From contig JBHJGQ010000004.1 in assembly GCA_050331595.1 (NCBI GenBank), forward strand, positions 140,262 to 204,261: 64,000 bases of DNA, given 5' to 3'. Made by a program: the position numbers and the translations under genes. This document shows, one piece after another, positions 4,822 through 50,859 of this stretch. Numbering within the stretch: the first letter of the stretch is position 1; each line of letters starts with the position of its first letter. Source of the DNA: Opitutales bacterium. GTDB taxonomy: Bacteria > Verrucomicrobiota > Verrucomicrobiia > Opitutales > JBHJGM01. The notes under the pieces are model-generated. The model did not search any database. It was given only the letters and a program-made list of their open reading frames with translations, and was not told where the DNA came from.

Positions 4822-4899
4822 GGGGCGGTTAGCTCAGTTGGCTAGAGCGGCTGGTTTACACCCAGTAGGTCACAGGTTCGAGCCCTGTACCGCCCACCA
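4822..4899 (+). tRNA. tRNA-Val (anticodon TAC), CCA encoded
   Basis: Cloverleaf read by eye. Acceptor stem GGGGCGG/CCGCCCA, D-arm AGCTCAGTTGGCTAGAGC, anticodon stem GCTGG/CCAGT with loop TTTACAC, T-arm CAGGTTCGAGCCCTG, then ACCA. Confidence 0.9.
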
Positions 4900-7408: not shown

Positions 7409-8980
7409 TTGGCAAAGATTGAACACAGTTCGAGCGGTCAGGGTGCCGCGCGCAAGGAAACGGTTTATCTGGTCGGAGCCGGGCCCGGCGAGGCGGGCTT
7501 GATGACGGTGCGTGGCAAGCAGCTCATCGAGACGTGCGATGTGCTGGTGTACGATTTTTTGGCATCACCGCAGATTTCGCAATGGACGCGTTCGGACTGC
7601 GAGCGCATCTACGTGGGCAAGCGCCCAAAGCGCCACACCATCGCTCAGGCCGACATTGCAACGTTGCTGGTCGAGGCGGCGCAGGAAGGTCAATCCGTGG
7701 TGCGGCTGAAGGGGGGCGACCCGTACATTTTCGGTCGCGGCGGAGAGGAAGTGCAGCGGCTGCGGGAGGCAGGCGTTGCCTTTGAAGTGGTGCCAGGCGT
7801 AACGGCGGCGCTGGCCGCCGGTGCCTATGCGGGCGTTGCGCTGACGCATCGTGACTTCAGTTCGGCGCTGACTTTTTTGACCGGGCACGAAGACCCGGAG
7901 AAGCACACCCTGCAAGTTGACTTTCGCAAGCACGCGGCGGCCGGCGGGACCTTCTGCATTTACATGGGGGTGGGTCAGGCTGCGCGGATCTGCCGGGAGA
8001 TGGTCGAAGGCGGTCTGCCGGAGTCTACGCCGGCGTTGGCCGTTGAGTGGGCCACCTTGCCGCATCAGCGAACGGTTGAGGGAACGCTGGGTAGTCTGCC
8101 GGAGCGGCTGGAGGCGATGGCGGTGACCTCGCCGGCGGTGCTGCTCATTGGCGAGGTCTGCGAACTCGCGCCGCAGCTGCATTGGTATTCGTCTACCGCA
8201 CCCCTGCGTGGGAAGCGGATTGTGGTGACGCGGGCGCAGGCGCAAGCCGGGCGCCTCAGCCGCAAGCTGGGAGAACTGGGCGCACAGGTGCTGGAACTGC
8301 CCTTGATCGAGACGCGCCCGGTGCACGAGCCCGCCGACGTTGACAAGGTGTTTCGGGAAATCGGGTCGTACCACTGGCTCCTCTTCACCAGCCGCAACGG
8401 GGTGCAGGAATTTTTCAGGCTGTTTCTGGAGCGCTTGAAGGACCTGCGACTGCTTGGTCCCAAGCGGATCGGAGTGGTGGGCAGCGGCACGGCTGAGGCG
8501 GTGCGCGCCTTTCACCTGGAGGTGGATGTGATGCCCGAGAAATCGACCAGCGCGGCGTTGGCGAACCGGCTCGTGCGCGAGGGCGACCTCGAAAACGAGA
8601 AGGTGCTCGTGGTGACAGGCAATCTCAATCGTGATACGCTGCGCAAGACGCTTGAGAGCAAGGGCCGCGCAATCGTCGATACGCTGCAGGTATACGAGAC
8701 GCGGCTGACGGATTTGGAGCGTAGCGGCAGCGCCACGGATTTTCGTAAGAACGGAGCCGATGCGATCACCTTCACCAGCGCGTCGACCGTGAAGTCCTTC
8801 GCGCGGCAAGCCAAGCACCTGCAGCTGGACGACGGTGCGCGTGTGCCCAAGGCGTTTGCGATTGGGCCGCAGACGCGCGCGGCAATGCAGGAGGCCGGAT
8901 TGCCTTGCGCGGGCGAAGCCGCCGAGCACACTCTCGAGGGGTTGACCGCGTTGCTGGTGGAGCAACTGGAAACGTCCTAG
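7409..8980 (+). CDS. cobA: Bifunctional uroporphyrinogen-III C-methyltransferase / uroporphyrinogen-III synthase (CobA-HemD fusion)
   Basis: The N-terminal half has 'VYLVGAGPGEAGLMTVRGKQLIETCDVLVYD' and 'LKGGDPYIFGRGGEE' (tetrapyrrole methylase). The C-terminal half has 'GKRIVVTRAQAQAGRLSRKLGELGAQVLELPLIETRP' and 'ITFTSASTVKSF' (HemD). TTG start. Confidence 0.87.
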   Translation: MAKIEHSSSGQGAARKETVYLVGAGPGEAGLMTVRGKQLIETCDVLVYDFLASPQISQWTRSDCERIYVGKRPKRHTIAQADIATLLVEAAQEGQSVVRLKGGDPYIFGRGGEEVQRLREAGVAFEVVPGVTAALAAGAYAGVALTHRDFSSALTFLTGHEDPEKHTLQVDFRKHAAAGGTFCIYMGVGQAARICREMVEGGLPESTPALAVEWATLPHQRTVEGTLGSLPERLEAMAVTSPAVLLIGEVCELAPQLHWYSSTAPLRGKRIVVTRAQAQAGRLSRKLGELGAQVLELPLIETRPVHEPADVDKVFREIGSYHWLLFTSRNGVQEFFRLFLERLKDLRLLGPKRIGVVGSGTAEAVRAFHLEVDVMPEKSTSAALANRLVREGDLENEKVLVVTGNLNRDTLRKTLESKGRAIVDTLQVYETRLTDLERSGSATDFRKNGADAITFTSASTVKSFARQAKHLQLDDGARVPKAFAIGPQTRAAMQEAGLPCAGEAAEHTLEGLTALLVEQLETS

Positions 8981-12226: not shown

Positions 12227-13888
12227 TCAAGGCAGCGCCAGGTGCTCGAGGTAGGTGTCTTCGAAGTCCGGCAACTGGTTTAGCTCGAGCAGGGTGGTGT
12301 TGTGGCGAAAGCGCTCAAGTTCATCCACCAAGGCAACGTCGAGCAGACAAAGGTAGGTGCCCCCCAGCGATGTGTTGCCGACGACCTCGATCTGGCCTTC
12401 ACGGAAGCCTGGCAACAGCCCGCAGGCCAGCGCGCACGAGACGTTGAGGTTCCGTCCAAAGCCCCCGGCCAGGTAAAGCGTTTCGATGTCTTCTGGCTTG
12501 AGTGAAGCTGATTGCAAGAGCAGGTCGATACCGGCGGCAATGGCGGCCTTGGCCTGAAGCAGGCTGGCGATGTCGGCTTCGGAGATGTGAAGTGGCAGTG
12601 TGGCTTCCGGGTTAAGGCGAAGGGCTCGGCCCCATTGGGTCTGAGTCCGTTGGGCCGGCTGGAGGTGATCCCATGCATTCGGCTCGAAACGCCCGTACTG
12701 GTTCAACAATCGGCCCTGGCGAGCCACGGCCAGGAAATCCAAGTAGGCTGAACCACAGACACCCGCGGCCTGTTTGGCAGGCTTGGCCCCGATGGTCTTG
12801 AGCACGAACGCCCCGCCCTCCGGGGATGCGGCGATCTCGCTGATGGCTCCCTCGACGGCCCGGGTGCCACAGTCCAGTCCTGCGCCCTCGAAGGCCGGGC
12901 CCGCCGCCGTCGCGCAGGCCAGGCGTTCTTGCGGGGTCTGGAGCACGATTTCGCCATTGGTGCCGATGTCGACCAGGAGGCTGGGCCGTTGGCGGTAGGG
13001 CAAGCCAAGCGCAGCCAGTCCGGCGTTCAGATCCGCCCCGACGTAGGGGCCCAACCCCGGCAGCAGGTGTACGGGGAAAGGGTCGGCGCCGTCTTCGAGG
13101 ACCAGTCCAAGCGTATCGGAAAAATGGATACGATGCTCTAGGAAGACCGGCTGGAAAGGGGCGATTCCCAGCGGGGTCGGGTCGATGCCCGCGAGCAGAT
13201 GGAGCATGACCGTATTGGCCGCGACCGCCATGCCGGCCAGGGACCCGGCCGGCAGCGAGGCCCGGCGCATCAGTTGGCGCAGCAAAGGCACGAGGGTCTC
13301 CTCGCCCAGGCTGCGTTGCAACTGGCCAAGAGCAGCGGGGGACTTCCCAGCGTACTCGATGCGGGTGAGGACATTGTCGCCAAAGCGCACTTGTGCGTTC
13401 AACGCGCTGGCTCGGTCCACGATGCGTCCATCGCGCAAATCGACCAGCAGAACCGCCACGGTGGTGGTGCCCAGGTCGACGGCGAATGCATGCGTTTTCA
13501 CCTCGACCTGCTCAAAGAGTGGATTTTGCCCGGCGGAGACTTTCAGGACGAAGGCGTCTTCGATCCTGGGCGAATGCGCCAGCAGCGAACGCCTGGGCAC
13601 GTGCACGACGACTGCTTCGCCCGCGGTGGCGTGCAGCTGACATTCGCAGGCAGGCAGCGTTTGGGTCGCGTGCTGGAGGTTGCCCTTGTGCCGCAGGGTG
13701 CCGGCCCGCAGTTCGACGGCGCATCCCTGGCACAGCCCGCGTCCGGCGCAGCGGGTGTTCAGCGCATAACCGGCGCGGGCGAGAAGAGCATCCAGCCGGG
13801 TTTCGCAATCCTCGGGCGCGACCCGAAGCGTAGCCGGCGGGCGATCCGGCAGGTCCAGCGTGAGTCGAATGGAGGCAGGCTCGCTCAC
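12227..13888 (-). CDS. Reductive activator of corrinoid enzymes (RACE/RamA-RACo-like): N-terminal [2Fe-2S] ferredoxin + ASKHA ATPase (DUF4445)
   Basis: Ferredoxin cysteines 'RCAGRGLCQGCAV...LPACEC'. ASKHA phosphate motifs 'AVDLGTTTVAVLLVDL' and 'LLVDIGTNGEIVL'. GTG start overlapping the DUF1638 stop (GTGA). Confidence 0.85.
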   Translation of the reverse strand: MSEPASIRLTLDLPDRPPATLRVAPEDCETRLDALLARAGYALNTRCAGRGLCQGCAVELRAGTLRHKGNLQHATQTLPACECQLHATAGEAVVVHVPRRSLLAHSPRIEDAFVLKVSAGQNPLFEQVEVKTHAFAVDLGTTTVAVLLVDLRDGRIVDRASALNAQVRFGDNVLTRIEYAGKSPAALGQLQRSLGEETLVPLLRQLMRRASLPAGSLAGMAVAANTVMLHLLAGIDPTPLGIAPFQPVFLEHRIHFSDTLGLVLEDGADPFPVHLLPGLGPYVGADLNAGLAALGLPYRQRPSLLVDIGTNGEIVLQTPQERLACATAAGPAFEGAGLDCGTRAVEGAISEIAASPEGGAFVLKTIGAKPAKQAAGVCGSAYLDFLAVARQGRLLNQYGRFEPNAWDHLQPAQRTQTQWGRALRLNPEATLPLHISEADIASLLQAKAAIAAGIDLLLQSASLKPEDIETLYLAGGFGRNLNVSCALACGLLPGFREGQIEVVGNTSLGGTYLCLLDVALVDELERFRHNTTLLELNQLPDFEDTYLEHLALP

Positions 13889-14679
13889 GTCGATCGCTTG
13901 CCTGGGCGTGCCTCGACGATCTGTTCGTGAGCCACGGGAACAATCGACTGACCCGGCTCAACGATCAGAAACCGCTGGCGGTCCCAGCGTCCGGCCAGCA
14001 GATCCTGAAGCAGTTGGGGCTCGCCTTTGAGGTGCATGAAGTCCCAACCCATGCTGTCGGCACAGCGGCGAGTGTACCGCGGGCCCCACTGCGGGTCGCT
14101 GGCGTCGCCCAAATCGGGAAACTCCACATGGGCGGCTTTGCGCACGTGGGCAAGGGCGGCCCGTTCGGTTTCGATGAGAAACTCGATATCTTCGGTGTCG
14201 TCGAACTTTTCTGCGTACGCCTCGCGCAGCCGTTCAAACTTTTCGTGGCAAGGGACCCGTCCGCCTCGGTTCCACCCCGGCGAATACCAGTACAAATCGG
14301 GGTGTGCCTGGCGCAACGTCTCGTAGCGTTCACGGCTGCCGAGCAAGAGCGTGATGCAGTCGTGCGCGCGCGGCAGAACCAGACGGCAGCGATGTGCGGA
14401 CAGCCCGCTCAGCCCATTGCCGCAAAGCCCGTAAGCCAGGACGATGGCCTGGGCGCTGGTCTGCGCCTCGATCACATCGATGGTTGCCTGCAGCCTGGCG
14501 CGCAGCTGCTCGGGTCGATCATGCAGGCCCATTTCCAGCAGGCAGAGCTCGACCACCGCCGGGATGGTCTGGCCTTGCAGAAAGTAGCGGACCTCTGCCT
14601 CGAAGACATCGCACGCCACCACGGCCAGAGGCGCGTCGGTGCCGTCTTCGCGGATTGGCGGGTGAGTGGTCTCAGCCAT
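13885..14679 (-). CDS. DUF1638 domain protein (corrinoid-system associated, function unknown)
   Basis: Internal ATG at 14679 gives 'MAETTHPP...LAVVACDVFEAEVRYF...LAYGLCGNGLSGL...LPRAHDCITLLLGS'. The first 144 codons of the track ORF overlap the upstream gene and were discarded. The start overlaps the upstream stop by 8 nt (ATGGCTGA). Confidence 0.72.
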   Translation of the reverse strand: MAETTHPPIREDGTDAPLAVVACDVFEAEVRYFLQGQTIPAVVELCLLEMGLHDRPEQLRARLQATIDVIEAQTSAQAIVLAYGLCGNGLSGLSAHRCRLVLPRAHDCITLLLGSRERYETLRQAHPDLYWYSPGWNRGGRVPCHEKFERLREAYAEKFDDTEDIEFLIETERAALAHVRKAAHVEFPDLGDASDPQWGPRYTRRCADSMGWDFMHLKGEPQLLQDLLAGRWDRQRFLIVEPGQSIVPVAHEQIVEARPGKRST

Positions 14680-15700
14680 CGAGGGCAGCGTTGAGCATGG
14701 CGCGGTAGTTTTCAATCGGCACGTAATCCGGGACGGAATTTCCGGTGCCCACGGCGTAGCCGCCCCGCTGTGCCGAACGCTCGACCATGCTCCGGGCGCG
14801 GCGGTAAACCTCCTCAGGCCGGCTGCGGCAGACGTAATCCATGTCGAGGCCGCCCAGGACTGCCAGGCGCGGGTGCAGGCGTTCGTAGGCGTCTTCCACG
14901 GGGCAAATGGCATCTTCGTAAGAGTGTTTGCCGTCCGCCTGGATGTCGTCGACCACGTCGTCCCAGACTTCATCAAGGTTTCCGCACGAGTGCAGGATAA
15001 CCGGTCGCCCGCACTGGTGGGCCATGCTCGCCATTCGCTTGTGCCAGGGAAAGATGTACCGGCGCAGGTCGGCGGGCGAGAGCATGGTCTGTGTCCTGTA
15101 GCCCCAATCATCGTTTTGAATGATTGCCCCTACGCTCTCGCAGGCGAGGGCCAGCTCGTAGTGGCGGACGAGCCGCCGGCCCACTTCGTCGGTGACCGCC
15201 TGAACCAGCTCGGGGTCCTCCAGGGTCAACAGGCACAGGTCCTCGAAGCCCACGACCTTGATCAGGTTTTCGAGCACGCCGCAGTTGGCCGGGACGACAA
15301 ACTTCATGCCATCGGGCAGTTCGCTGGCCAGCTCATCGATGATTTCAAAGGCCTGCTCGTTGACCTCGGGCCAGGTCAACTGATCCAGGTCGTCCCAGTC
15401 TTTGACCACGCCACCTTCATTGGCCGAGTACGATTCCATCTCGGCCTGATCGCCCAGGCTGAAGTGGATGAAGGGCGGCCACGCCGGGTGCACGACGGCG
15501 AAGTCATAGCCGGCCGCGGCAAAGAGCTCGATCCAGGCCTGCAGCTGAGCTTTGGGGTCATCGGGCGGTGGTGGCGCGATGTCGTAGTGCGGAAAAAGCG
15601 CTTCGCAGAGAATGAACTCAAAGAGGGTGGGACGGCTGGGCGCCTTGCGCTGCAGGACGGCCAGCAGATTGGCAAAGTCAGGTTCTCGAGGGGCCCTCAT
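14672..15700 (-). CDS. URO-D/MtaA-type methyltransferase-like protein 2 (HxC zinc motif present)
   Basis: ATG 15700 gives 'MRAPREPDFANLLAVLQRKAPSRPTLFEFIL'. 'GRPVILHSCGNLDEV' matches the H-x-C zinc-ligand motif of MtaA/MtbA-type enzymes. ATGA overlap with the upstream GTPase gene. Confidence 0.78.
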   Translation of the reverse strand: MRAPREPDFANLLAVLQRKAPSRPTLFEFILCEALFPHYDIAPPPPDDPKAQLQAWIELFAAAGYDFAVVHPAWPPFIHFSLGDQAEMESYSANEGGVVKDWDDLDQLTWPEVNEQAFEIIDELASELPDGMKFVVPANCGVLENLIKVVGFEDLCLLTLEDPELVQAVTDEVGRRLVRHYELALACESVGAIIQNDDWGYRTQTMLSPADLRRYIFPWHKRMASMAHQCGRPVILHSCGNLDEVWDDVVDDIQADGKHSYEDAICPVEDAYERLHPRLAVLGGLDMDYVCRSRPEEVYRRARSMVERSAQRGGYAVGTGNSVPDYVPIENYRAMLNAALDG

Positions 15701-16842
15701 GGTTGAGACAGATCGGCGGATTGCGCCCTTTCCCGGGAAGCAAAGCGGTGTGTGGGTTGAGGGGCCGCCGGCCGAAAGGCTGCCATCGCCTTCAGCTCGA
15801 AACGCACGCCTGCTCCGGCTTGCGACGACTGGAGCTGTGCCTGCAGGTGAGTGCGCAAAACCTGTGGCGAGGTGAGGGCGCGCACGTTGATTTCGAGCAG
15901 GGCTTCGCCCGGGGACATCCGGGCCCGTCCATGGTCGCGCTGTTGGGTGAAGTCGGCCCGACGGTCGATCCGGTTCAGACGAAGGCATTGGGCACGTGTG
16001 GCCAGATAGGCCTTGGCGTGGGCAATCTCGGCACCTTCGGCGAGCAGGCAGGCTATCAGCCGGGCAAAGAAGGCGCGTCCGTGGGCCAGGCCGTCGCTGT
16101 CACTTTTGGCTTTCAGGCCGACGGTGGCGTTGAGCCAGCCCAGCATCCCCTCGCCTTCGGCGTAGACTTCGTAGTCGACCTCGGGCATTCGCAGGCCAGG
16201 CGTAGCTGCGGGATCCGTCACCTGATTGAGCCATCGGTCGATGCCTTCGCCAGTCACCGTGGAGATCGTTTGCACGTGTCGGTCGGGAAACTCAGCGCGG
16301 AGCTTGTGGGTGAGGTTGCGCAGGAGGACGGGGTCGTGACGGTCGGCCTGGCTGAGCAACAGACAGTCGGCCTCCTCCAGTTGCTTGCGAAAGATGTAGA
16401 AGACCGATTCGGGAAAGGGTCGCTCTCCCAGCGGGCCGGTGAGCCGGGCCAGACGGGCCGGGTCGACCAACGCAGTGGCCGGCGCCACGGCGTAGCGGTC
16501 GGCAAAGTAGGTGCGCAAAGGTGCCGCAACCGTGGCGACCAAATCGGTACAACTGCCCACCGGCTCACACAAAAAGTAGTCCGGCGCCACCGCCTCGCCC
16601 AGCTGCTGCAGGGCTTGCAAAAGCGTATCGAACTTGCAGCAGAAGCATCCGCCACTGACTTCGCCTACCCGAAACCCGGCGGCTTCGAGCGTGGCGGTGT
16701 CGACCAGGTTCATCGCCTGGTCGTTGGTGATCAGGCCCACGCGCTGACCCCGCGCCGCCAGGCGCGTGGCGGCCGAGGCGAGCAAACTGGTTTTGCCCGC
16801 GCCAAGAAAGCCGCCAACGAGAATGAAGCGGGGCAGAGCCAC
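15697..16842 (-). CDS. COG0523/CobW-like G3E P-loop GTPase (putative metallochaperone)
   Basis: 'FILVGGFLGAGKTSLL' (Walker A) and 'VSGGCFCCKF' (the GCxCC motif of COG0523). The best start is GTG 16842, 6 nt after the upstream stop. The Arg/Pro-rich N-terminal 150 aa of the track ORF was rejected. Confidence 0.72.
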   Translation of the reverse strand: MALPRFILVGGFLGAGKTSLLASAATRLAARGQRVGLITNDQAMNLVDTATLEAAGFRVGEVSGGCFCCKFDTLLQALQQLGEAVAPDYFLCEPVGSCTDLVATVAAPLRTYFADRYAVAPATALVDPARLARLTGPLGERPFPESVFYIFRKQLEEADCLLLSQADRHDPVLLRNLTHKLRAEFPDRHVQTISTVTGEGIDRWLNQVTDPAATPGLRMPEVDYEVYAEGEGMLGWLNATVGLKAKSDSDGLAHGRAFFARLIACLLAEGAEIAHAKAYLATRAQCLRLNRIDRRADFTQQRDHGRARMSPGEALLEINVRALTSPQVLRTHLQAQLQSSQAGAGVRFELKAMAAFRPAAPQPTHRFASRERAQSADLSQP

Positions 16843-16847
16843 GGCGG

Positions 16848-18227
16848 TCAGCGCTCCCAGGCGTGCGTTGGATCGCCCACTGAACGGATCGCGGCCACCA
16901 GGCGGGGGCGATCTGGAATAATGGAGGCGAACTGTTCCCTGCCTTGAATGCAAATGCTGGGAATGGCCGTGACGTTGAGCTTCTTCATGTAGCCCAGGCC
17001 GGCGCGTTCCTTGATCTTGTGTTCGCGCACCTGCACGTGGTCGCCCGCTTCGCTCGCGGCTTGCTGAGCAGCCTGGAGCATGTACTGGCACGGTGCGCAG
17101 GAACCCGAATCCAGCGTAACCACGTCGACAATCACGCGGCCGCTGCGGTCGTAATCGGGCAAATCGATGTCCTCGAAGGGATCCTCGGGGGCTGCCTCGG
17201 CGGCGGTGCGGGCCACGTCGCGCTGGTAGGGATTGTGCACGAGTGCGGCCACCGCGCGCAGGTTGGCCTCGGGTGTGGCGTAGGGCAGGTCGCAACCGGG
17301 CGCGAGGATGAAGCCTGTGGCCCCACCTTCGTCGTAGCAGCGAAGGGCATCTCTCTGCGACTCGAGTTCGTTGCCCAGAAGCAGCGCGGTGGTCAGGCGC
17401 AGGTTGCCGCCAAAGGATTTTCCGGCTTTGGTGGCAATCGCCCGCAGGGCCGCCAGGCTGACGTTCTCGTCGACACTGAGGTTGTCACAGCGTGTCTGGC
17501 ACATGGCGGGAAGATTGCGGGTGGCGTCGCCGCAGACGAAGAGTGAAGCCAGCCCACCGCCCGCGTGAACGGCGTCGAAGACGTCGTTGAGGGGACTGCT
17601 GACGAAGCGCTCGAAGTGCTCGGGCGAGATCTGGCTGACCATCGGATCGACCACTGCCACAACGTCGGCGCCCGCCTCCAGGTAGGCTTGCGCGGTGACC
17701 TGGCCAACTTGAGCGCAGTGACGCAGCAGCACGTCGACGTCGTCTTCGGCGTCGTACATATCCAGGAAGATGTCGTCTCCGCGCAGGTGAAGGCCCAAGG
17801 TGAAGGGACCGGTGATGAGGCCGTAGAGAGCGACCGTCTCGCCGATCTCGGCCTTGAGTTGGCGCAGCGCTTCCAGGACGACCGGCAGGCGGCCTCCGTT
17901 TGGGTCGAACCCGGGCAGTACCGAGAGGTCCATCGAATCGAGCAAGGGATGGCTGCAGACCGCTGGTGGCGAGTCGTCGCTCCAGCGCAGCTTGCAGCCA
18001 AGAATCTCGGCCTCGATCTGAAGGTCGAAGGCCACGGGCAGGGCGTCGGGCTGGTAGGCCTCGTGGGCGTGCTTGAGGCCCGCGTACAGTTTTTGCGAGT
18101 CGCGCAGGTAATCGGAGGCGGTGGCACCGATCAGGCTGCCGCCATGGACGCCCACAAAGGGCAGCCACGGCACTCGCGGTACAGCCTGGCCGCGCAGGGC
18201 CGAAAGGAGGATTTCTTTGCCATTCAT
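16848..18227 (-). CDS. URO-D/MtaA-type methyltransferase-like protein 3 fused to a C-terminal thioredoxin-fold CxxC domain
   Basis: ATG 18227 gives 'MNGKEILLSALRGQAVPRVPWLPFVGVHGG', then 'GFILAPGCDLPYATP' (URO-D family C-terminus). About 95 extra residues follow: 'VIVDVVTLDSGSCAPCQYML...VTAIPSICIQGREQFASIIP', which resembles small redox-active disulfide proteins. ATGA overlap with the corrinoid protein gene. Confidence 0.75.
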   Translation of the reverse strand: MNGKEILLSALRGQAVPRVPWLPFVGVHGGSLIGATASDYLRDSQKLYAGLKHAHEAYQPDALPVAFDLQIEAEILGCKLRWSDDSPPAVCSHPLLDSMDLSVLPGFDPNGGRLPVVLEALRQLKAEIGETVALYGLITGPFTLGLHLRGDDIFLDMYDAEDDVDVLLRHCAQVGQVTAQAYLEAGADVVAVVDPMVSQISPEHFERFVSSPLNDVFDAVHAGGGLASLFVCGDATRNLPAMCQTRCDNLSVDENVSLAALRAIATKAGKSFGGNLRLTTALLLGNELESQRDALRCYDEGGATGFILAPGCDLPYATPEANLRAVAALVHNPYQRDVARTAAEAAPEDPFEDIDLPDYDRSGRVIVDVVTLDSGSCAPCQYMLQAAQQAASEAGDHVQVREHKIKERAGLGYMKKLNVTAIPSICIQGREQFASIIPDRPRLVAAIRSVGDPTHAWER

Positions 18228-18904
18228 ACGATTGTGTAGCCTTGCGAAAGGTCGCGGTTGCTTCGTTGCGCCGTTGAGGCCTCGCCCATGAGTTCGCGTA
18301 CGAGGTCCACCGCGCTGGCGGCATCGGTGGAAAACCCGTCGGCCTGAATCTCGTCGGCAAACTCCTGGGTTACGGGTGCGCCTCCCACAACGATACGGAT
18401 TTGCGGCAGATTTGCCTCCCGGATGCGCGCAACTGTCTCCTTCATCTTCGGCATCGTGGTCGTCAGCAGGGAGGAAAGGCCGATGATGTGGGCGTCGTTT
18501 GCCCTGGCGGCCTCGACAAACTGATCGGCGGTGACGTTGGTGCCCAGGTCGATGACCCGAAAGTTTGCACCCTTCCACATCATCGCCACGAGGTTCTTGC
18601 CGATGTCGTGCAGGTCGCCTTCGACGGTGCCAATAACCGCTGTGTACTTGGGGGCGAGGCCGGCGCCCGCCAGAGCGGGCTCGAGCAGCTGCATCGCCTG
18701 CTTCATCGCGCGGGCAGCCACCAGCACCTCAGGGATATAGATTTCGTTGGCCTTGAAGCGTCGGCCCACGTCATCCATCCCGCGCACCATTGCGGCGAGA
18801 ATGTCGCCCGGGTTGGCCTGTGCCTCCAGGGCCTGGCTGGTTTGGGCGACGGCGTCCTTGCGCTTGCCGGCTTTGATGGCTTCCTCGAGAGCATCCAAAT
18901 TCAT
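18224..18904 (-). CDS. Corrinoid (cobalamin)-binding protein, MtaC/MtbC-like
   Basis: Helical cap 'ILAAMVRGMDDVGRRFKANEIYIPEVLVAARAM'. B12-binding motif 'GTVEGDLHDIGKNLV' (DxHxxG), plus 'GLSSLLTTTM' and 'VVGGAPVT'. Confidence 0.88.
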   Translation of the reverse strand: MNLDALEEAIKAGKRKDAVAQTSQALEAQANPGDILAAMVRGMDDVGRRFKANEIYIPEVLVAARAMKQAMQLLEPALAGAGLAPKYTAVIGTVEGDLHDIGKNLVAMMWKGANFRVIDLGTNVTADQFVEAARANDAHIIGLSSLLTTTMPKMKETVARIREANLPQIRIVVGGAPVTQEFADEIQADGFSTDAASAVDLVRELMGEASTAQRSNRDLSQGYTIV

Positions 18905-18949: not shown

Positions 18950-20065
18950 CTACTGGTCATTGCACCAGACTTCGCGGGACTTGGCGATGTAGAACCGGTA
19001 GTTTTGCAGGCTCACGTCCGGAGGGACGCGGTGGTCACAATGGGCCACAAAGCCACCTTCGCTGACCAGCGGGGCCAAGCGGTGTATCTCGGCCTCGATG
19101 GCCGTCGGCCCCTGCGCGAGGATACGCTTGTCGAACCCGCCACGCAGGAGCAACCCCTTGCCGAAGTGCTTGCGCAGGGTGACAGGATCGGCCTTCCAGG
19201 TGCCCACTTCAATGGGGAACATGCAGTTGACACCGGCTTCCAGCCAAAGCGGCAGCAGGGCATCGATGCAACCGTCGCAGTCGACCCAAATCACGTCGAT
19301 GCCGTGGCGCCGGGCCAGCTCGGTGATGCGCCGGTAGCGTGGCACCAGATACTTTTGGAAATGCTCGGGTGAGAGCAGGGGGCCGGCGTTGAAGCACATA
19401 TCCTCCCACATGGCCAGAGCATCGAACTGTCCGCCCCGGGCAAAGGCCCGCTCGAGCGTGCCTTCGATGCACTCGCAGAGCGTCTCGACCATCTCCTCAA
19501 AAAGCGCGGGGTCGTCGTAGACCAGGTAGGCAATCGCTTCCAGGCCCATCCAGTCGCGCAGCCAGCCAAAGAGGCTGCCCCCGTGGACTTCGACAATGGC
19601 ATTGCGGTTGGGGTCGCGCCAGAGCGCACACCGCTCCGAATCGGGGGCCGGCAGGCGGTCGGGGTGGTCGGGATTGAGTCTGGGCTTGTAGTGAGTTTCC
19701 CAGGACTCGCGGTCAACCAGCAGGTGCCCCAGGTGATGGGGGATGGAGCCCATGAACTTGCCGCGGCGGACCAGGACGCCATCGTGTTGGCGCACGACCT
19801 CGTTCTCGCCCTCGTCTCGAATCAATTCGGGCTCAAAGCCCGGGCACAGTCCGACGTGCACGCCGGCATCGCGCAGATCGTCCATGCCGAAATAACGCGC
19901 GCCCGCGCCGTGCGAATTGACTTCAGCGGGCAGGCCATCTCGCTGCCACAGGACCAGCGTCTCGTCCCAGAAGCCGAAGTCCAGCAACGTGGGTCGGTCA
20001 CGTGCCTCGAAACGCATCGTGGCCAGAAACCGCGCGCGGTCGGTCATGGGGTTGGAGTCGGTCAT
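18950..20065 (-). CDS. URO-D/MtaA-type methyltransferase-like protein 4
   Basis: 'MTDRARFLATMRFEARDRPTLLDFGFW' (family-typical N-terminus), 'GIDVIWVDCDGCIDALLP' and 'GGFVAHCDHRVPPDVS'. The start is ambiguous (ATG at 20047, 20065 or 20089) because an 18-bp duplication repeats the start codon. Confidence 0.76.
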   Translation of the reverse strand: MTDSNPMTDRARFLATMRFEARDRPTLLDFGFWDETLVLWQRDGLPAEVNSHGAGARYFGMDDLRDAGVHVGLCPGFEPELIRDEGENEVVRQHDGVLVRRGKFMGSIPHHLGHLLVDRESWETHYKPRLNPDHPDRLPAPDSERCALWRDPNRNAIVEVHGGSLFGWLRDWMGLEAIAYLVYDDPALFEEMVETLCECIEGTLERAFARGGQFDALAMWEDMCFNAGPLLSPEHFQKYLVPRYRRITELARRHGIDVIWVDCDGCIDALLPLWLEAGVNCMFPIEVGTWKADPVTLRKHFGKGLLLRGGFDKRILAQGPTAIEAEIHRLAPLVSEGGFVAHCDHRVPPDVSLQNYRFYIAKSREVWCNDQ

Positions 20066-20078
20066 GGGGTTGGAGTCA
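20043..20078 (-). repeat. 18-bp direct tandem duplication spanning the start region of URO-D-like gene 4
   Basis: gtcatggggttggagtcg / gtcatggggttggagtca, 17 of 18 identical. It encodes MTDSNP-MTDSNP-MTD on the minus strand. Confidence 0.85.
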
Positions 20079-20354
20079 CCGCTGATCATGAATGAAAGCT
20101 TACCATAAAGACTCCTTATCGTGGAATCGCTTTTCGCGCTGAAAACTTGTACTATTCTGCTGCCGCGCAGCCACGTGAGCAAGGTGCCGCTCAGTGGCTT
20201 TTGCGGGCGTTGTGCCGGGAGCTTGTCCAAGGGAAGCGCGCCGCAGAGGCCCGCGTAGCTTCATGTTTGCTGCGGATTACCCGGGCCTCCCGATCCGGCT
20301 GCCGGGCCGCTCGAATGTCCAGGGCAGGCCTTCGGCGGAGTGCTGGCAAACCGC

Positions 20355-41837: not shown

Positions 41838-43202
41838 CTAGGCCTTCGCGTCCAGGGCGATGAAGGTGTCCAGGTCGCGGTGCGGCACGACGGTGAAGGT
41901 GCCGGTGTTCGCGTACGTGTAGTGGCTCGTGCGTTCACCGCTCTCCGGGTCGTAGAGCGAGACCTCGAACGCATCGCTCTTGAGGACGCGGGTATCCAGG
42001 CAGAGTGGCTGTCGTACCGGTACGTAGGCCAGAATGTAGCTGCCTTCACGACACCGGGCAACACGCACGTGCGCCGCCGGGTCGCAATTTTCTGGCTGGG
42101 TGAAGTCCCGACCCACGCTGCGGAACTTTTGCAACGGCAGCCACAACTCCTGGGCGGGCATGCGTGTGAAATAGGCGCGCTCCAGCAGGCGATCCGTCAG
42201 GTGCTTCAGCTGCGCGGAACCCGGGGCGTCGAGCACGTCGCTCCAAACCGGCATGTGGTGCCGGCCATGCACGTGGATGCGGTCGCCCTTGCGGTGAATC
42301 TGGCGAATGGGTTCGCAGCCGTAGCCAAAGCCGGCGGCTCCCGCCAGGACGGAGCGGTAGAGGCACTTGCGCACGTCGTAGGCGCCAAAGACTGGTTCTT
42401 CCGCCGGATGGTCCTTTTCCTGCAACATCAGAAACATCGGGCTGCACTCGTAGTTGGCCTCCAGGTTCAGGCAGGGTTTGGGCGGGGCGTGGCGGTAGAG
42501 GTGCTCGATGTAGCGGTAGTCGGCGATGTTGGGCCGGGCGTGGCCGGATTGCATCGCGTTGAAATCCAGCCACGGGGCCGCGTGAAAAATGTCCGAGACG
42601 GAGGTATCGTTCGGATGGAAGGTCATGAGGCGCTCCCCGCTGCGTCCTGCCCGGATGCCGGCTGCCATCGCCTCGACGGTGCGGGCGTAGTCCTGGTTTT
42701 GGATGGGGCTGTCTCCGCCGAGCACCCACAGGATATTGGGCAGATCGCCCAGTGAATCGGAGAGGTGGCGTCCATAGGCGTGGGCTTTCGGCGCGTCCAT
42801 GATGACGGGTCCAGCCGAGTTGGAATGCTCGTTCCATTTGTCGCCCCAGGTGGGCAGCAAGCCCATGAAAAGGCCGTAGGACTGAGCGAGTTCCACCACC
42901 CGCCGCACGTTTTCCAGCCAGGCCGGATTCAGGCGCACGGCGTACATGTCCGCTTCCGAGGCAAAGGGCGTTACCCCGTAGGCGTTGGGTGTGTTTGGGG
43001 TGAACAGGTCCCGGAAAACGACGGAGAGGATCACCGTGAAGCCCTTGCTCGCTCGATTTTCAAACAACCGCCGCACGTCGGCCTCCTCCAGCTTGTTGAA
43101 GAGCAGCCAGGCGGTGTCAGCCAGAAGGAAGAAGGGCTGGCCTGTTTCGGTCTGGAAAAAGTGTCCGTCGGGACTGACCCGCAGCGTCGGCAGCATCGGC
43201 AT
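41838..43202 (-). CDS. DUF4038 / GH140-like glycoside hydrolase with C-terminal collagenase-type binding domain
   Basis: ATG 43202 gives 'MPMLPTLRVSPDGHFFQTETGQPFFLLADTAWLLFNKLEEADVRRLFENRASKGFTVI', a DUF4038-type TIM-barrel N-terminus. The C-terminus is 'YILAYVPV...FEVSLYDPESGE'. Confidence 0.7.
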   Translation of the reverse strand: MPMLPTLRVSPDGHFFQTETGQPFFLLADTAWLLFNKLEEADVRRLFENRASKGFTVILSVVFRDLFTPNTPNAYGVTPFASEADMYAVRLNPAWLENVRRVVELAQSYGLFMGLLPTWGDKWNEHSNSAGPVIMDAPKAHAYGRHLSDSLGDLPNILWVLGGDSPIQNQDYARTVEAMAAGIRAGRSGERLMTFHPNDTSVSDIFHAAPWLDFNAMQSGHARPNIADYRYIEHLYRHAPPKPCLNLEANYECSPMFLMLQEKDHPAEEPVFGAYDVRKCLYRSVLAGAAGFGYGCEPIRQIHRKGDRIHVHGRHHMPVWSDVLDAPGSAQLKHLTDRLLERAYFTRMPAQELWLPLQKFRSVGRDFTQPENCDPAAHVRVARCREGSYILAYVPVRQPLCLDTRVLKSDAFEVSLYDPESGERTSHYTYANTGTFTVVPHRDLDTFIALDAKA

Positions 43203-43303
43203 GGCCTGAATTGCAAGGGCCCATGCACGCCTGAGACAAGGCCGCAATCGTACCCAACCGCGGCAGATGCCCCATGCGGTCAGATTTGGAGGTGTCTGGA
43301 TGT

Positions 43304-44371
43304 CTACAGGCTTGGAGGTCGCCCGTGCCAGTGCGTGGCGAGGGCCACCCGATTCTCCAGCCCGAGCTTCTCCAGGATGTGCTCGACGTGCTTGGCGACA
43401 GTGCGCGGACTGATGCCCAGGATGGTCGCGATCTCGGGATTGGATTTGCCCTGCGCGACCCAATGGCTGACCTCGCCTTCGCGCTGGGTGAGCGTTGCCG
43501 GCGTCTGCGAGCCTGGTTGGACGAGGCGGAAATGCCCTTGAAAGCAGTCCGTTCCCGGATGCGGGGCCAGGCCCTCCAGGATCAGCTTACGGCCTTCGCC
43601 CAGCCGCCACTGTGCGTGCGTCTGAGCCCCTGCGATCAACGCGGGTAGCTGCTGACACAATTGATCGGGGAGCATGAACAGACCCTTTGAGCCGAGCCCG
43701 GTTTTGGCCAGGGCTTCACCGCCCCCAGCCGAGGCATGAAAGATCGCACCCTCGTCGCTGAAGATCACCAAGCCTCCCTGCGTGGCAAGACTGTCCCGGC
43801 TGCGGAAGCGGTCTTGCAGGGAGGATTGCACCTGGGCGATTAACGAATTGCGCAGATGCGCCACCGTGCTGATCGCCTCCAGAAAACGCGCCTCATCTTC
43901 GCTGAACCCGCTGCGCTTGCGGACATAGCAGCCGCCAGCCCAGACGCGCGGGAGCGGCTCGCTGTGATGAATCAACACGTACGGGCCGCCGAGCATCTTG
44001 TACACGTGCTCGTAGACATCGAGGCTCTGAAAATGCGGGATTCCGTACTCCTGCTCGATGTTGGCGGAGAAGCGCTGCAGCCTCCCTTCAAGTGCCTCAT
44101 GCGCGCGCGGCAGCTGATGGTTGAAATGGTAGAGATTCTCGCCGGCACGCAGCACGTCGGTGGTCGGTTTCTCGCTGGCGGCAATCTCGTTGAAGCTCGT
44201 CTCCAAATCATGCAGCGCAAAGCCGCCAAATTCGGCCCCGATCAGCTCGGTGATTTCGGTGGCCAGGTACCGGCCAACCTCACTGGTAGTCTCAAGCCGA
44301 CTGATCGTCGCGATACACTCAGGCAGGCGTTGCAAGAGGTCGGGGCGGGGTCGGTTCTGCCAGGCTTTCAT
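43304..44371 (-). CDS. LuxR family transcriptional regulator with N-terminal sensory region
   Basis: C-terminal HTH 'LTQREGEVSHWVAQGKSNPEIATILGISPRTVAKHVEHILEKLGLENRVALA'. Confidence 0.8.
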   Translation of the reverse strand: MKAWQNRPRPDLLQRLPECIATISRLETTSEVGRYLATEITELIGAEFGGFALHDLETSFNEIAASEKPTTDVLRAGENLYHFNHQLPRAHEALEGRLQRFSANIEQEYGIPHFQSLDVYEHVYKMLGGPYVLIHHSEPLPRVWAGGCYVRKRSGFSEDEARFLEAISTVAHLRNSLIAQVQSSLQDRFRSRDSLATQGGLVIFSDEGAIFHASAGGGEALAKTGLGSKGLFMLPDQLCQQLPALIAGAQTHAQWRLGEGRKLILEGLAPHPGTDCFQGHFRLVQPGSQTPATLTQREGEVSHWVAQGKSNPEIATILGISPRTVAKHVEHILEKLGLENRVALATHWHGRPPSL

Positions 44372-44567
44372 CGGCGGTTCTAGGGTGGGTCTGGACCAAG
44401 TCTCCGAGGGACGCCGATGAGGTGTTGTATTCCGTAGGATGAGATACTCCAGCCCAAAGGGCGTTTAGGGTCATCTTTATACGCAGATGTACGTATTCCC
44501 GGTGAAAAGCACAGCTGATAGAGTTACACGCACGCAGCCACGCTTAACGTTCCACGTCCTCTTGCTT

Positions 44568-44744
44568 ATGTCGCAGTTCGATGCAGACGATCTCGCCGCC
44601 GATGCGCAGACAGAGATTTGCCTGACCCTACCTGAAAACATGGTCCGCGCGCTGGAGAGCCAGGCGAACATCCGCGGGCTGAACCTCGAGCAATGGGTAG
44701 CCCAAGCCATCCGCGAATTGGCCGAGGACGGTGGCTCAAATTAG
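44568..44744 (+). CDS. Small ribbon-helix-helix-like protein (58 aa), orphan
   Basis: 'EICLTLPENMVRALESQANIRGLNLEQWVAQAIREL' fits a beta-strand/helix/helix CopG-like pattern. There is no partner gene downstream. Weak call. Confidence 0.3.
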   Translation: MSQFDADDLAADAQTEICLTLPENMVRALESQANIRGLNLEQWVAQAIRELAEDGGSN

Positions 44745-44917
44745 GGCGCCGCAAAGTTCAATTTATTGAACATCAATCTAAAATTTTAAACTCAATTGGA
44801 CGGCGGGCCGCCAGTCTAAGCCGATCGAGTTGACTCGCTACAAGCGGGCAATCCAGGGCGGAGGGTGTTTGTTTCAATTAGGTTCGCGACATTCGTTGGC
44901 GCGATGCTCGCTCGAGG

Positions 44918-46516
44918 TCAGCCTTGGCCGATCCAGTACAACCCGAGGTACACGCCGACGACCGCTACGAGAACGAACGCGCCAAAGGGCAGGGCGAAGC
45001 GCCACGGCTTCAGATCCACCCGTGAGGTGCCCGAATCCGTGAGCGGTTCCTGAACAGTAACCGGCTGCAGGTGGCCCCACACCAGCATGATGGCCGTGGG
45101 CACCGCCGCGCAAAAGGCCAACGTGTGCAACCAGTGCACTTCCAAGCCGAAAACGTGGTTATCCAGAACGAAGGACAGCACGATGTACAGGATCCCGCCG
45201 ACGAAGAAGGCCACCTTGGCCGCGATCGCCGGCACCTTTGGGTTAAACATCCCCACCAGGATCACGACCGGCAGCGCGCAGAAAATCGAGCCTAGCTGCT
45301 TCATCAAGTTGAAGAGGCCCTCGCCCGACTTGGAGATAAAGGGCGCAGCGCAGATGGAGGCCAACGCGATGACAACCCCGAAGACCTTTCCGGCGGCGAT
45401 CAGCTCGGACTCGCCAACGGTTTTGCGCAGGGGTTTGTAGACGTTGAGGCTGAAGATGGTGGCGGCACTGTTGAGCGTGCTGTTGAACGAACTCAGGACG
45501 GCCCCAAACAATACCGCACCGAAAAAGCCCGCCAGCCAGCCGGGCAGCACCTGCTGAACGAGATCGGGATAGGCGTCGTCGCCCTTGGCCAGGTCCGGGC
45601 CCAGCAGGTGCCAAGCGATGATGCCAGGAAGCACCAGGTAGAGCGGCCCCCACAGCTTCATCGTGGCGGCGAAGAGAATGCCCTTTTGCCCCTGCTCGAG
45701 GCTGCCGGAGGCGAGCGTGCGCTGAATGATGTACTGTGTGGTGCACCAGTAGGCAAAGTTGATGTACAGCATGCCGGTGAAGAGCGTGCTGAAGGGGACG
45801 TCGGCGTCCTCGTCGCCCACCGGGTTGAGGCGCTCGGGCGCACGGCTGGTGAGCGTGTCGACACCCTCGAGAAAACTGCCGTCGCCCAGGGCAACCAGGG
45901 CGAAGCCCGGCACGAGCAAACCCCCGATGAACAAACCCACGCCGTTGATGGTGTCTGATACCGCTACCGCGCGCAGCCCGCCACCGATGGCGTAGATGCT
46001 GCCGACCACGCCCGTGAGCACGATCATCAGCAGCAGCGATTGGCCCTCGGACAGACCGAGCAACTCCTCGGTCTGGAAGATTGCGTTCAGCGCCAGCGCC
46101 CCCGAATACAGGATGAAAGGCATGACCAGGAAAATCATGCCGAAGAGGCTGGCCGCGGTGAAAATGTTGCGCACGCCCCGGTCGAAGCGCTGCTCCACGA
46201 AATCCGGCGTGGTGGCGATGCCCCGGCGCAGGTACTCCTTGAGCATGTACAGCGCCATGAAAACCATCGTGACCGCGGCGACGACCTCCCAGGCCATGAC
46301 CACCATGCCGTTGGTGTAGGCGTTGCCGTTCAGCCCCACCATTTGCTCGGAGGAGAGGTTGGTCAGCAGCAGCGAGCCGCCAATGAAGTACCAGCGCAGG
46401 CTGCGTCCGCCCAAAAAGTAGCCGTCCGCTGTGGTGCGGTCGCTCCCGCGTGTCTTCAGCCAGGAGACGACGGCCACGAGGCCGGTAAAAAGGAGAAACG
46501 AAACGAGAGTCCACAC
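44918..46516 (-). CDS. Sodium:solute symporter (SSS/SGLT family)
   Basis: 'DGYFLGGRSLRWYFIGGSLLLTNLSSEQMVGLNGNAY' is the SGLT-type signature region. About 14 TM segments. Confidence 0.9.
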   Translation of the reverse strand: MWTLVSFLLFTGLVAVVSWLKTRGSDRTTADGYFLGGRSLRWYFIGGSLLLTNLSSEQMVGLNGNAYTNGMVVMAWEVVAAVTMVFMALYMLKEYLRRGIATTPDFVEQRFDRGVRNIFTAASLFGMIFLVMPFILYSGALALNAIFQTEELLGLSEGQSLLLMIVLTGVVGSIYAIGGGLRAVAVSDTINGVGLFIGGLLVPGFALVALGDGSFLEGVDTLTSRAPERLNPVGDEDADVPFSTLFTGMLYINFAYWCTTQYIIQRTLASGSLEQGQKGILFAATMKLWGPLYLVLPGIIAWHLLGPDLAKGDDAYPDLVQQVLPGWLAGFFGAVLFGAVLSSFNSTLNSAATIFSLNVYKPLRKTVGESELIAAGKVFGVVIALASICAAPFISKSGEGLFNLMKQLGSIFCALPVVILVGMFNPKVPAIAAKVAFFVGGILYIVLSFVLDNHVFGLEVHWLHTLAFCAAVPTAIMLVWGHLQPVTVQEPLTDSGTSRVDLKPWRFALPFGAFVLVAVVGVYLGLYWIGQG

Positions 46517-46819
46517 GATGCTCTGGAGGGGTAGGGGTGCGCCAGGGTTTCCTTTCTAACACCGCCTGCCCTGCCTGAGCGCAAGCTTATCCCGGGCTCT
46601 GCGTGACTACGCGTTCCTCTGTTTTGAGTAATTATCGGTGGTTGTCTTGCGCATTGTGGACGTGACGTACCGCGCGTAAGAGGCATAAAAAAAGCCGGGC
46701 CCCCAGACCGCTGGAGCGGTGTTGAAGGCCCGGCTGCGAAGTTGTGTGAACGTACTTTGATCGGCGTGATTCTAGCCTCGGGATATCCGTCGCATGGTTG
46801 CCGAATCACGCAGTGGGCG

Positions 46820-50365: not shown

Positions 50366-50859
50366 AGCAATCCTGTGGGTTTTTGAGTGGACGAGACAAA
50401 GGGGCCGCAACGCGCGAAAACTCGACGCCCGTGCTGCCCGAGAGGGGTATGGACATGCTTCAAAGCAGGCCAAAGGGACAAATGGGAACGGCAACCGCTT
50501 GAGGTTGCTTCCAGTGGCGATTCTATCAGAGCGTGAGCGCCACTGTTGGCGAAGGGGTAGAGCCGCCAGCTATCGTTCACATAGAAACGCTAACGACCTG
50601 TTACTTTCGGTAGCAAACAAAAAATAATATGTATACGTGGACCCACAATGTCATAGACAATAGACAGGGGTATGCGCACGCTTGGGTTCGACACTCCTGA
50701 AGCTTAGTGACAACGTCCAGCATTTTCTTTACAAAGCATTGGTGCCAGCTGCGATTTTGAGGTGCCAAGTGCTTGCCTTGCTAAGGACAGAGAAGCTGAG
50801 TGAATCATTGCTAATACATAATCTTATAACTTGGACGCCTGTCCAGGGTGCATCAGGAT

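Follow-up and report, generated by a model that had tools for sequence, protein, structure and literature searches.

In methanogens, where their task is to methylate coenzyme M, the corrinoid-dependent methyltransferases of the uroporphyrinogen decarboxylase (URO-D) type are well understood; their roles in bacteria are mostly unknown. In the URO-D S-methyltransferases the zinc is held by a His-Cys-Cys triad, the O-methyltransferases lose one or both of the cysteines, and retention of both is the mark of the S/Se-type enzymes (PMC10418091). In non-methanogenic bacteria, the type 1 mlp clusters described by Kountz and Balskus combine several MtaA-like paralogues with a corrinoid protein plus an activase (Ram/RACE) and have no tetrahydrofolate methyltransferase; the Mlps are His-Cys-Cys proteins, have no thioredoxin domain and are found mainly in obligately anaerobic Firmicutes (PMC10418091). 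The COG0523 proteins are metal chaperones, and the genes of one subfamily lie together with those of corrinoid methyltransferases, the Zn-dependent mtaA and mtaB among them; Haas et al. found its members beside mtaA, mtaB, mtaC and ramM, in unfused mtaA/mtaB/mtaC neighbourhoods of Methanosarcina, Methanococcus and Clostridium (PMC2770081). Here we describe a gene from a 64,000-nucleotide stretch of an Opitutales bacterium (assembly GCA_050331595.1, contig JBHJGQ010000004.1, positions 140,262 to 204,261; the whole stretch is called the window below), in which an MtaA-like URO-D barrel is fused to a thioredoxin-like domain bearing a CxxC motif. The fusion belongs to a large unstudied subfamily of corrinoid-type methyltransferases, which have a dithiol domain built in, a metal site that deviates from the usual one and a GTPase as a seemingly obligate partner.

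Such a fusion had been proposed in an earlier note made from the sequence alone, and the architecture, an MtaA-type URO-D barrel followed by a thioredoxin-fold CxxC module, was borne out by Pfam, by structure models and by Foldseek. The AlphaFold2 model of the whole protein, built with 120 homologues, had a predicted local distance difference test (pLDDT) of 94 and a predicted template modelling score (pTM) of 0.90. The note had counted about 95 extra residues past the barrel; the Pfam barrel match ends at residue 332 and leaves about 125, thus the figure of 95 holds for the folded module (residues 365-459) and not for the entire extension. The linker (residues 333-364) was without regular secondary structure in the model, with a pLDDT of about 72 at residues 341-350 and about 93 at 351-360. 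The databases contain a 100% identical protein, from a metagenome-assembled genome of Opitutales, and 119 further full-length homologues. In a scan of one genome per species, relatives were encoded in at least 576 species genomes and the 80 best loci were analysed; in all 80 the gene was a single uninterrupted open reading frame (ORF), which rules out the merging of two separate genes by a frameshift. The gene is a natural two-domain enzyme. In agreement with the note, which knew of no account of this fusion, full-text literature searches yielded no description of a URO-D and thioredoxin-like combination. The databases record the architecture, PF13192+PF01208, without a name, and annotate the family only as 'uroporphyrinogen decarboxylase family protein' or 'MtaA/CmuA family methyltransferase'.

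The fusion is widespread. The closest 120 database clusters were all full length (451-538 amino acids), 57-82% identical to the protein of the window, and all carried the CxxC. Its hosts include Opitutales, Puniceicoccaceae, Pelagicoccus mobilis and other Verrucomicrobiota, Planctomycetota, Phycisphaerae, Kiritimatiellia and Lentisphaerota, and further Armatimonadota, Hydrogenedentota and WS1. Unexpectedly, a profile built on the small number of unfused relatives brought up another large fused clade, in Clostridia (Sinanaerobacter, Anaerotalea, Lentihominibacter, Tissierellia), with proteins of about 450 amino acids and the motif CAAC; the two clades are about 40% identical to each other. Unfused 'orthologues' accompanied by a separate thioredoxin gene were not seen, the profile of the unfused relatives having mostly returned the fused clade. 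The CxxC motif lies exactly where the earlier note had placed it, at residues 377-380, and was conserved in the relatives: it was CAPC in 78 and CPPC in 2 of the 80 loci, and among 243 fused proteins of both clades it was retained in 238 (CAPC in 120, CAAC in 116, CPPC in 2).

The C-terminal domain modelled alone reached a pLDDT of 90.7, and its top 50 Foldseek matches in the PDB were all thioredoxins (probability 1.00, template modelling (TM) score 0.53-0.67). With models and Foldseek in agreement, the predicted thioredoxin fold of the extension was confirmed. In the AlphaFold2 model the helix 378-394 starts at the C377/C380 pair and P423, the presumed cis-proline, stands just ahead of strand 424-427, in the segment VTAIPSICIQGREQFASIIP (residues 419-438). 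By sequence the module is a marginal member of Thioredoxin_3 and of the MJ0307 family. The domain alone matched Pfam Thioredoxin_3 (PF13192) over residues 372-433 with E 4.5e-5 and 23.8 bits, below the cut-off of 24.8, and PF13192 is precomputed on roughly 40% of the homologues; the nearest NCBIfam models, NF047660 and TIGR00411 (the MJ0307 family), were both sub-threshold (21.2 against a cut-off of 92.75 for TIGR00411; TIGR00412 scored 17.1 against 62). Its nearest sequence relatives were a Streptomyces thioredoxin and the archaeal MTH807, MJ0307 and MTH895. With MJ0307 (1fo5), MTH807 (1nho) and MTH895 (1ilo) the domain shares a four-stranded thioredoxin fold of about 85 residues, the CxxC at the start of helix 1 and the cis-Pro loop, the sequence matches being all marginal (E 4e-4 to 0.1). 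These archaeal proteins are free-standing, whereas the domain of the fusion is covalently attached to an enzyme and carries CAPC or CAAC. A search for stand-alone relatives of the domain gave only 11 short proteins, most of them with a piece of linker or barrel end, which are probably fragments of the same fusion.

The surface of the domain near the CxxC and the cis-Pro loop was highly conserved. Conserved in both clades were P357 and Y359 of the linker and, in the domain, L372, D373, C377, A378, C380, Y382, M383, K404, P423, G429, S435 and P438. Cys426, considered as a third functional cysteine of a three-Cys metalloid site, was rejected: it lies within strand 3, and neither the Clostridia clade nor the divergent members keep it, having Tyr, Val, Phe or Leu instead. 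The domain might be purely structural, docking the enzyme to the corrinoid protein, to the corrinoid activase RACo or to the GTPase, with a CxxC that has no chemical role. The pTM of the whole model suggests rigid packing against the barrel, the cysteine pair is absent from two divergent members (P0141 and P0190), and in three proteins (P0132, P0161 and P0184) the first domain is followed by a second thioredoxin-like domain without a CxxC. However, the motif was otherwise kept across clades of such low mutual identity, along with D373, Y382, M383 and the cis-proline. Since a merely structural motif would be expected to drift, this retention argues against a purely structural role, which we regard as very improbable.

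The best solved relative of the fusion protein was the MtaA of M. mazei (4ay7; phmmer E 1.2e-27, 25% identity), on which the whole model superimposed in Foldseek with a TM(target) of 0.88-0.90. With MtaA and MtbA the fusion shares the barrel fold, the catalytic-face motifs, both Cys ligands and the Glu, and in the window its gene, like theirs, is accompanied by those of a B12-binding corrinoid protein and of an ATP-dependent activase. The fusion is set apart by its low identity, by the replacement of the zinc-ligand His by Phe, by the C-terminal linker and thioredoxin-like domain of about 120 residues, and by the frequent lack of a corrinoid protein nearby. The NCBIfam model TIGR01463 (mtaA_cmuA) gave 157.4 bits against a cut-off of 235, and the MtaA and MtbA equivalogs 129.4 and 140.2 bits against 400 and 600. 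Since the scores are below the curated cut-offs and the defining His ligand is lost, the fusion, although it is related to MtaA/MtbA, should not be filed as MtaA. The bacterial hosts are not known to have coenzyme M, therefore the methyl acceptor must differ from that of MtaA/MtbA.

The earlier note had started from a standard MtaA zinc-thiolate site, and this premise did not hold: at the position of the triad His there is Phe230, and Glu254 is fixed instead. The functions that the note had offered for the dithiol, to hold the zinc site or the corrinoid in the reduced state or to accept the methyl group, are each hypothetical. The two putative cysteine ligands, Cys232 and Cys312, are invariant across the homologues, the latter within the segment GFILAPGCDLPYATP (residues 305-319). 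In order to judge this pattern 315 relatives were compared, all of them from one wider clade, so that the correlations are not independent events. Phe-Cys-Cys together with the CxxC was present in 238 of the 243 fused proteins, while the unfused relatives had His-Cys-Cys in 33 cases and Phe-Cys-Cys in a minority of about 17; position 254 was Glu in 253 of 258 Phe-type proteins against about 5 of 36 of the His type. The simplest reading is a Cys232-Glu254-Cys312 metal site, in which the Glu would stand in for the lost His and the CxxC need not supply a ligand. A TIM-barrel site of two cysteines and one glutamate that activates a methyl donor or acceptor is also found in MtaB, which binds its zinc by Glu-Cys-Cys. 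A similar arrangement exists in MetE, with a His-Cys-Glu-Cys zinc site (PMC10861871); both enzymes belong to different barrel families with only remote fold kinship and have no thioredoxin-like domain. From these motifs we infer that the barrel is an MtaA/MtbA-like corrinoid-dependent methyltransferase of the thiolate type, its substrate class and metal being likewise putative.

Phe at the place of the His and a CxxC domain went together almost perfectly (in 238 of 243 fused proteins, against the 33 unfused ones of the His type), as would be expected if the CxxC were directly catalytic, with one of its cysteines either standing in for the lost His as a ligand of the metal or serving as a thiolate that accepts or relays the methyl group, in the manner of the Zn-Cys4 acceptor in Ada. 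In P0141 the CxxC was lost together with both barrel cysteines. Mutual information with average product correction (MI-APC) in the Planctomycetes-Verrucomicrobia-Chlamydiae clade linked S376, Q381, A421, S424 and A434, which flank the CxxC and the cis-Pro, with positions on the catalytic face of the barrel, namely the loops 138-154, L96 and P319. However, this covariation was not reproduced in the Clostridia clade, and mean-field direct coupling analysis was dominated by gap artefacts. The fixed Glu254 is a simpler substitute for the His, Phe-Cys-Cys also occurs in the unfused minority, and P0190 has SxxS yet keeps C312. A stoichiometric protein methyl sink would also be ill-suited to a catabolic operon. 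Thus we consider a direct catalytic function of the CxxC unlikely.

A COG0523 gene was located directly downstream of the fusion in 74 of the 80 loci, with a median gap of 28 nt, and it adjoined the fusion in 8 of 9 further Pfam-annotated contexts. This adjacency was observed in both clades, even without other corrinoid-related genes nearby, and in Phycisphaerae, Armatimonadota and two Clostridia the two genes formed a lone pair amid unrelated genes. Of the 80 loci, 21 had a corrinoid protein next to the fusion, 16 had DUF1638 there and 15 had RACo. The arrangement resembles, as a gene neighbourhood, the COG0523 subfamily of Haas et al., where a CobW-family GTPase likewise stands beside an MtaA-type methyltransferase, a corrinoid protein and a RamA-type activase; it differs in that the putative client here has a thioredoxin-like domain and that the usual GTPase has CxC, not GCxCC. 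The adjacency of the GTPase, which the earlier note had not remarked on and which is the strongest clue from the gene context, points to metal-site or cofactor maturation rather than to a simple redox helper. The reading which we favour, tentatively and without calling it probable, is that the CxxC domain is a built-in maturation or repair module for the Cys-rich metal site of the barrel and works together with the COG0523 GTPase, because both accompany this one paralogue and no other.

In such a maturation or repair system the barrel would probably use a metal bound by Cys232, Glu254 and Cys312 to activate a soft nucleophile (a thiol or selenol), and in the window the methyl group would be exchanged with the corrinoid protein encoded immediately upstream, which in turn would be serviced by the RACo activase and the DUF1638 protein. 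Genetic evidence connects DUF1638 (in Phaeobacter, PMC5764234), as well as RamA-like proteins, with the reactivation of B12 (PMC5764234, PMC12478193). The variable O-type URO-D paralogues would probably load the corrinoid protein from methoxylated substrates, and these may be O-methyl sugars, because sulfatase, GH43 and apiosidase-like genes surround the operon. The CxxC dithiol would keep Cys232 and Cys312 reduced, and/or it would form a transient shared Cys site with the CxC/CxCC of the GTPase during metal hand-over. This proposal is supported by the fact that both Cys ligands and Glu254 were kept while the His changed to Phe, by the neighbouring GTPase of a metal-chaperone family, by the high conservation of the surface near the CxxC and the cis-Pro loop, and by one locus which adjoins znuABC-zur; the corrinoid link is supported by the start/stop overlap of the fusion and corrinoid protein genes, by the 21 loci mentioned, by the operon of Pelagicoccus mobilis and by a cluster in Sinanaerobacter.

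Several observations weigh against the maturation or repair proposal. The two divergent members without a CxxC do not behave alike, since P0141 has lost both barrel cysteines as well, while P0190, in which the Cys232 region is absent from the fragment, keeps C312 in its PGCD motif. Unfused Phe-Cys-Cys relatives exist, therefore the barrel is apparently able to work without a thioredoxin domain in cis. Most loci had no corrinoid protein within ±6-8 kb, and for this reason the corrinoid dependence is inferred from homology in most of them. The usual partner GTPase, of about 311 amino acids, has GGS[IL]FCxC instead of the canonical GCxCC, which makes a zinc-chaperone role less secure; that of the window belongs to a minority type of 381 amino acids with the canonical GGCFCC. 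In three loci (Table 1) a stand-alone homocysteine S-methyltransferase was encoded in the fusion/GTPase operon, thus the final acceptance of the methyl group need not fall to the fusion. An MTHFR-like gene was found near the fusion in four loci (for example L045 3335-4936). Together these two kinds of neighbour hint at a connection with methionine or C1 metabolism, of the kind seen in split MetH systems. Two side observations concern the partners: tandem fusions of both GTPase types, of about 650-680 amino acids, were present at L059 1376-3418 and L073 6388-8354, and at locus L088 unfused Phe-type paralogues were in the same cluster as the fused copy.

The Cys-rich metal site suggests S/Se chemistry, and the thioredoxin-like domain might accordingly handle the substrate or the product, by reducing a disulfide to the thiol acceptor or by capturing sulfide, selenide or methanethiol released in demethylation. 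The related mlp clusters have been tied to methyl-sulfur and methyl-selenide metabolism (PMC10418091), and one Clostridial locus lay beside a DsbD/thioredoxin/rhodanese-TusA-DsrE gene set. The nearest NCBIfam models of the domain and of the window GTPase were both selenoprotein families (NF047660 with 35.8 bits and NF041053 with 59.7 bits, respectively). However, these scores are far below the cut-offs of 105 and 180 bits, and the majority GTPases matched the generic CobW/ZigA models better than the selenoprotein models. No sulfur or selenium genes recurred near the 80 loci, and neither a thioredoxin reductase nor any other recycling partner was conserved nearby. The selenium link is not supported on these grounds, and substrate or product handling as a whole seems unlikely to us.

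That the two-gene pair stands alone in most loci, and that when clustered it travels with RACo and DUF1638, would also fit a service module for the corrinoid itself. The fusion and the GTPase would then not act as a methyltransferase of a pathway but would carry out, for example, thiol-dependent dealkylation or reduction of incoming or inactivated cobalamin, in the manner of CblC/MMACHC with its G3E GTPase, or a dithiol-driven reductive remethylation of Co(II). Some operons are already complete without the fusion, having a donor methyltransferase, a corrinoid protein and a homocysteine methyltransferase, and one locus abuts B12-dependent eut genes. Several facts speak against such a service role: where corrinoid proteins are encoded, their reactivation is already provided for by RACo, no B12 transport genes recurred nearby, and a dithiol is ill-suited to donating single electrons to the Co(II)/Co(I) couple. 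A cobalamin riboswitch that could control the pair was found neither in the window nor in 8 loci. We judge this explanation improbable.

A more far-reaching possibility, to which we give little credence, is that the CxxC lies over the mouth of the barrel and takes part in the reaction, either as a protein-borne methyl acceptor or relay, or together with the GTPase in a nucleotide-driven dithiol re-arming of the corrinoid or metal site. If it were true, it would represent a new way to run or repair B12-dependent methyl transfer in non-methanogenic, often oxygen-exposed bacteria.

In the window the fusion is part of a seven-gene set on the minus strand, in the order URO-D paralogue, corrinoid protein, fusion, GTPase, URO-D paralogue, DUF1638 and activase (Table 1), and the same seven-gene operon was found in Pelagicoccus mobilis. 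The ATG of the fusion overlaps the stop codon of the corrinoid protein gene (ATGA), and the GTG start of the GTPase is 5 nt past the stop codon of the fusion. The nearest NCBIfam model of the corrinoid protein was an MtgC-type corrinoid protein. A fourth URO-D paralogue and sulfatases flank the set. In the alignment the three unfused paralogues of the operon have lost one or both Cys and show O-type ligand patterns; the one downstream of the GTPase is, by its motif, likely a substrate-specific methyltransferase. With the type 1 mlp clusters the set has in common the MtaA-like paralogues, the corrinoid protein and the activase, the absence of a tetrahydrofolate methyltransferase and the non-methanogenic bacterial host; judged by the site motifs it falls outside the mlp class, since its enzymes are of two other kinds, the fusion with Phe-Cys-Cys plus Glu and the paralogues of the O-type.

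Table 1. Features of the fusion gene, of the surrounding operon and of selected loci in other genomes (positions of the window unless a locus is named).
Feature	Position	Strand	Basis
Fusion gene, URO-D/MtaA-like methyltransferase + thioredoxin-like domain	16848..18227	-	ORF and translation, 459 amino acids; ATG at 18227, stop 16848-16850
URO-D/MtaA-like (beta/alpha)8 barrel, residues 4-332	17232..18218	-	Pfam PF01208 E 2e-57
Inter-domain linker, residues 333-364, conserved F351, P357, Y359	17136..17231	-	ordered in AlphaFold2 model
Thioredoxin-fold domain, residues 365-450, beta-alpha-beta-alpha-beta-beta-alpha	16878..17135	-	Pfam, models, Foldseek
C377-A-P-C380 motif, N-terminus of helix 1 of thioredoxin-like domain	17088..17099	-	CxxC in 80/80 loci
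Pro423 codon, thioredoxin cis-proline position before strand 3	16959..16961	-	invariant in both clades
Phe230 codon, at MtaA zinc-ligand His position (LHICGN vs LFVCGD)	17538..17540	-	alignment to 4ay7
Cys232 codon, putative metal ligand, first Cys of H-x-C motif	17532..17534	-	invariant across homologues
Glu254 codon, D-E-N motif, putative third metal ligand	17466..17468	-	aligns with MtaA E-E
Cys312 codon, PGCD motif, putative metal ligand	17292..17294	-	invariant across homologues
Divergent unfused URO-D paralogue upstream of corrinoid protein; start codon uncertain	18950..20230	-	Pfam URO-D E 1.4e-11; alignment
Corrinoid (B12-binding) protein, translationally coupled to fusion gene	18224..18904	-	Pfam B12-binding + B12-binding_2
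COG0523/CobW-family GTPase, 381 amino acids, GGCFCC	15697..16842	-	Pfam cobW E 1.4e-21
Unfused URO-D paralogue, H-x-C...N motif (O-type)	14672..15700	-	Pfam; alignment
DUF1638 protein	13885..14559	-	Pfam E 3.8e-33
RACo/RamA-type corrinoid reductive activase, N-terminal 2Fe-2S Cys motif	12227..13888	-	Pfam RACo_C_ter + Raco_middle; NCBIfam AcsV-like
Homocysteine S-methyltransferase genes	L042 5179-6207; L064 7120-8004; L065 3667-4587		PF02574

In these clusters the fusion is the sole methyltransferase that keeps a sulfur-type metal site, and the family reaches gut Clostridia (Lentihominibacter). Once its function is known, it would name the methyl acceptor or a maintenance step in bacterial corrinoid systems without a tetrahydrofolate methyltransferase, it would give the COG0523 GTPases a defined client, and it would help to explain how polysaccharide-degrading Verrucomicrobiota handle methylated substrates. 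Three sulfatases, an MFS transporter, a GH43 protein, an apiosidase-like enzyme and a CBM6/35 protein are encoded around the operon (window positions 9764-30373 and 41838-50494). By its gene content the region looks like a candidate system for stripping O-methyl groups from sugars, within a polysaccharide-utilisation region of Opitutales. The N-terminal 133 codons of the activase (13489-13888), which were unscored by Pfam, contain the pattern CX4CX2C...C typical of a plant-type 2Fe-2S ferredoxin domain.

Two Clostridial loci show the fusion in other surroundings. In Sinanaerobacter it belongs to a methylamine cluster of the pyrrolysine-dependent kind, which also encodes MttB, MtbB, corrinoid proteins, RACo, PylS and PylD, and there it holds the place that MtbA has in the clusters of methanogens. 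In the cluster of Sinanaerobacter chloroacetimidivorans (L086 1-12243) gene calling broke both the MttB and the MtbB gene into two parts, as an in-frame pyrrolysine UAG would lead one to expect, and the cluster also holds cobW and two unannotated genes (235 and 72 amino acids). In Anaerotalea the fusion comes after znuABC-zur, a PocR-AraC regulator and two corrinoid proteins, and before RACo and cobW; the zinc-uptake operon, znuA-znuC-znuB-fur(zur), lies directly upstream of the fusion cluster of Anaerotalea alkaliphila (L089 2959-6069).

An nhaA-I riboswitch-like RNA (RF03057, 52 bits) was detected at 14540-14590 (+) of loci L002 and L081, from a Phycisphaerae/Planctomycetota genome, about 5 kb downstream of the fusion/GTPase pair, to which it is probably unrelated. 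In the window itself a uroporphyrinogen-III C-methyltransferase/synthase fusion (TP_methylase + HEM4) is encoded at 7409-8980 (+), a few kb from the operon, and a tRNA gene is present at 4823-4896 (+).

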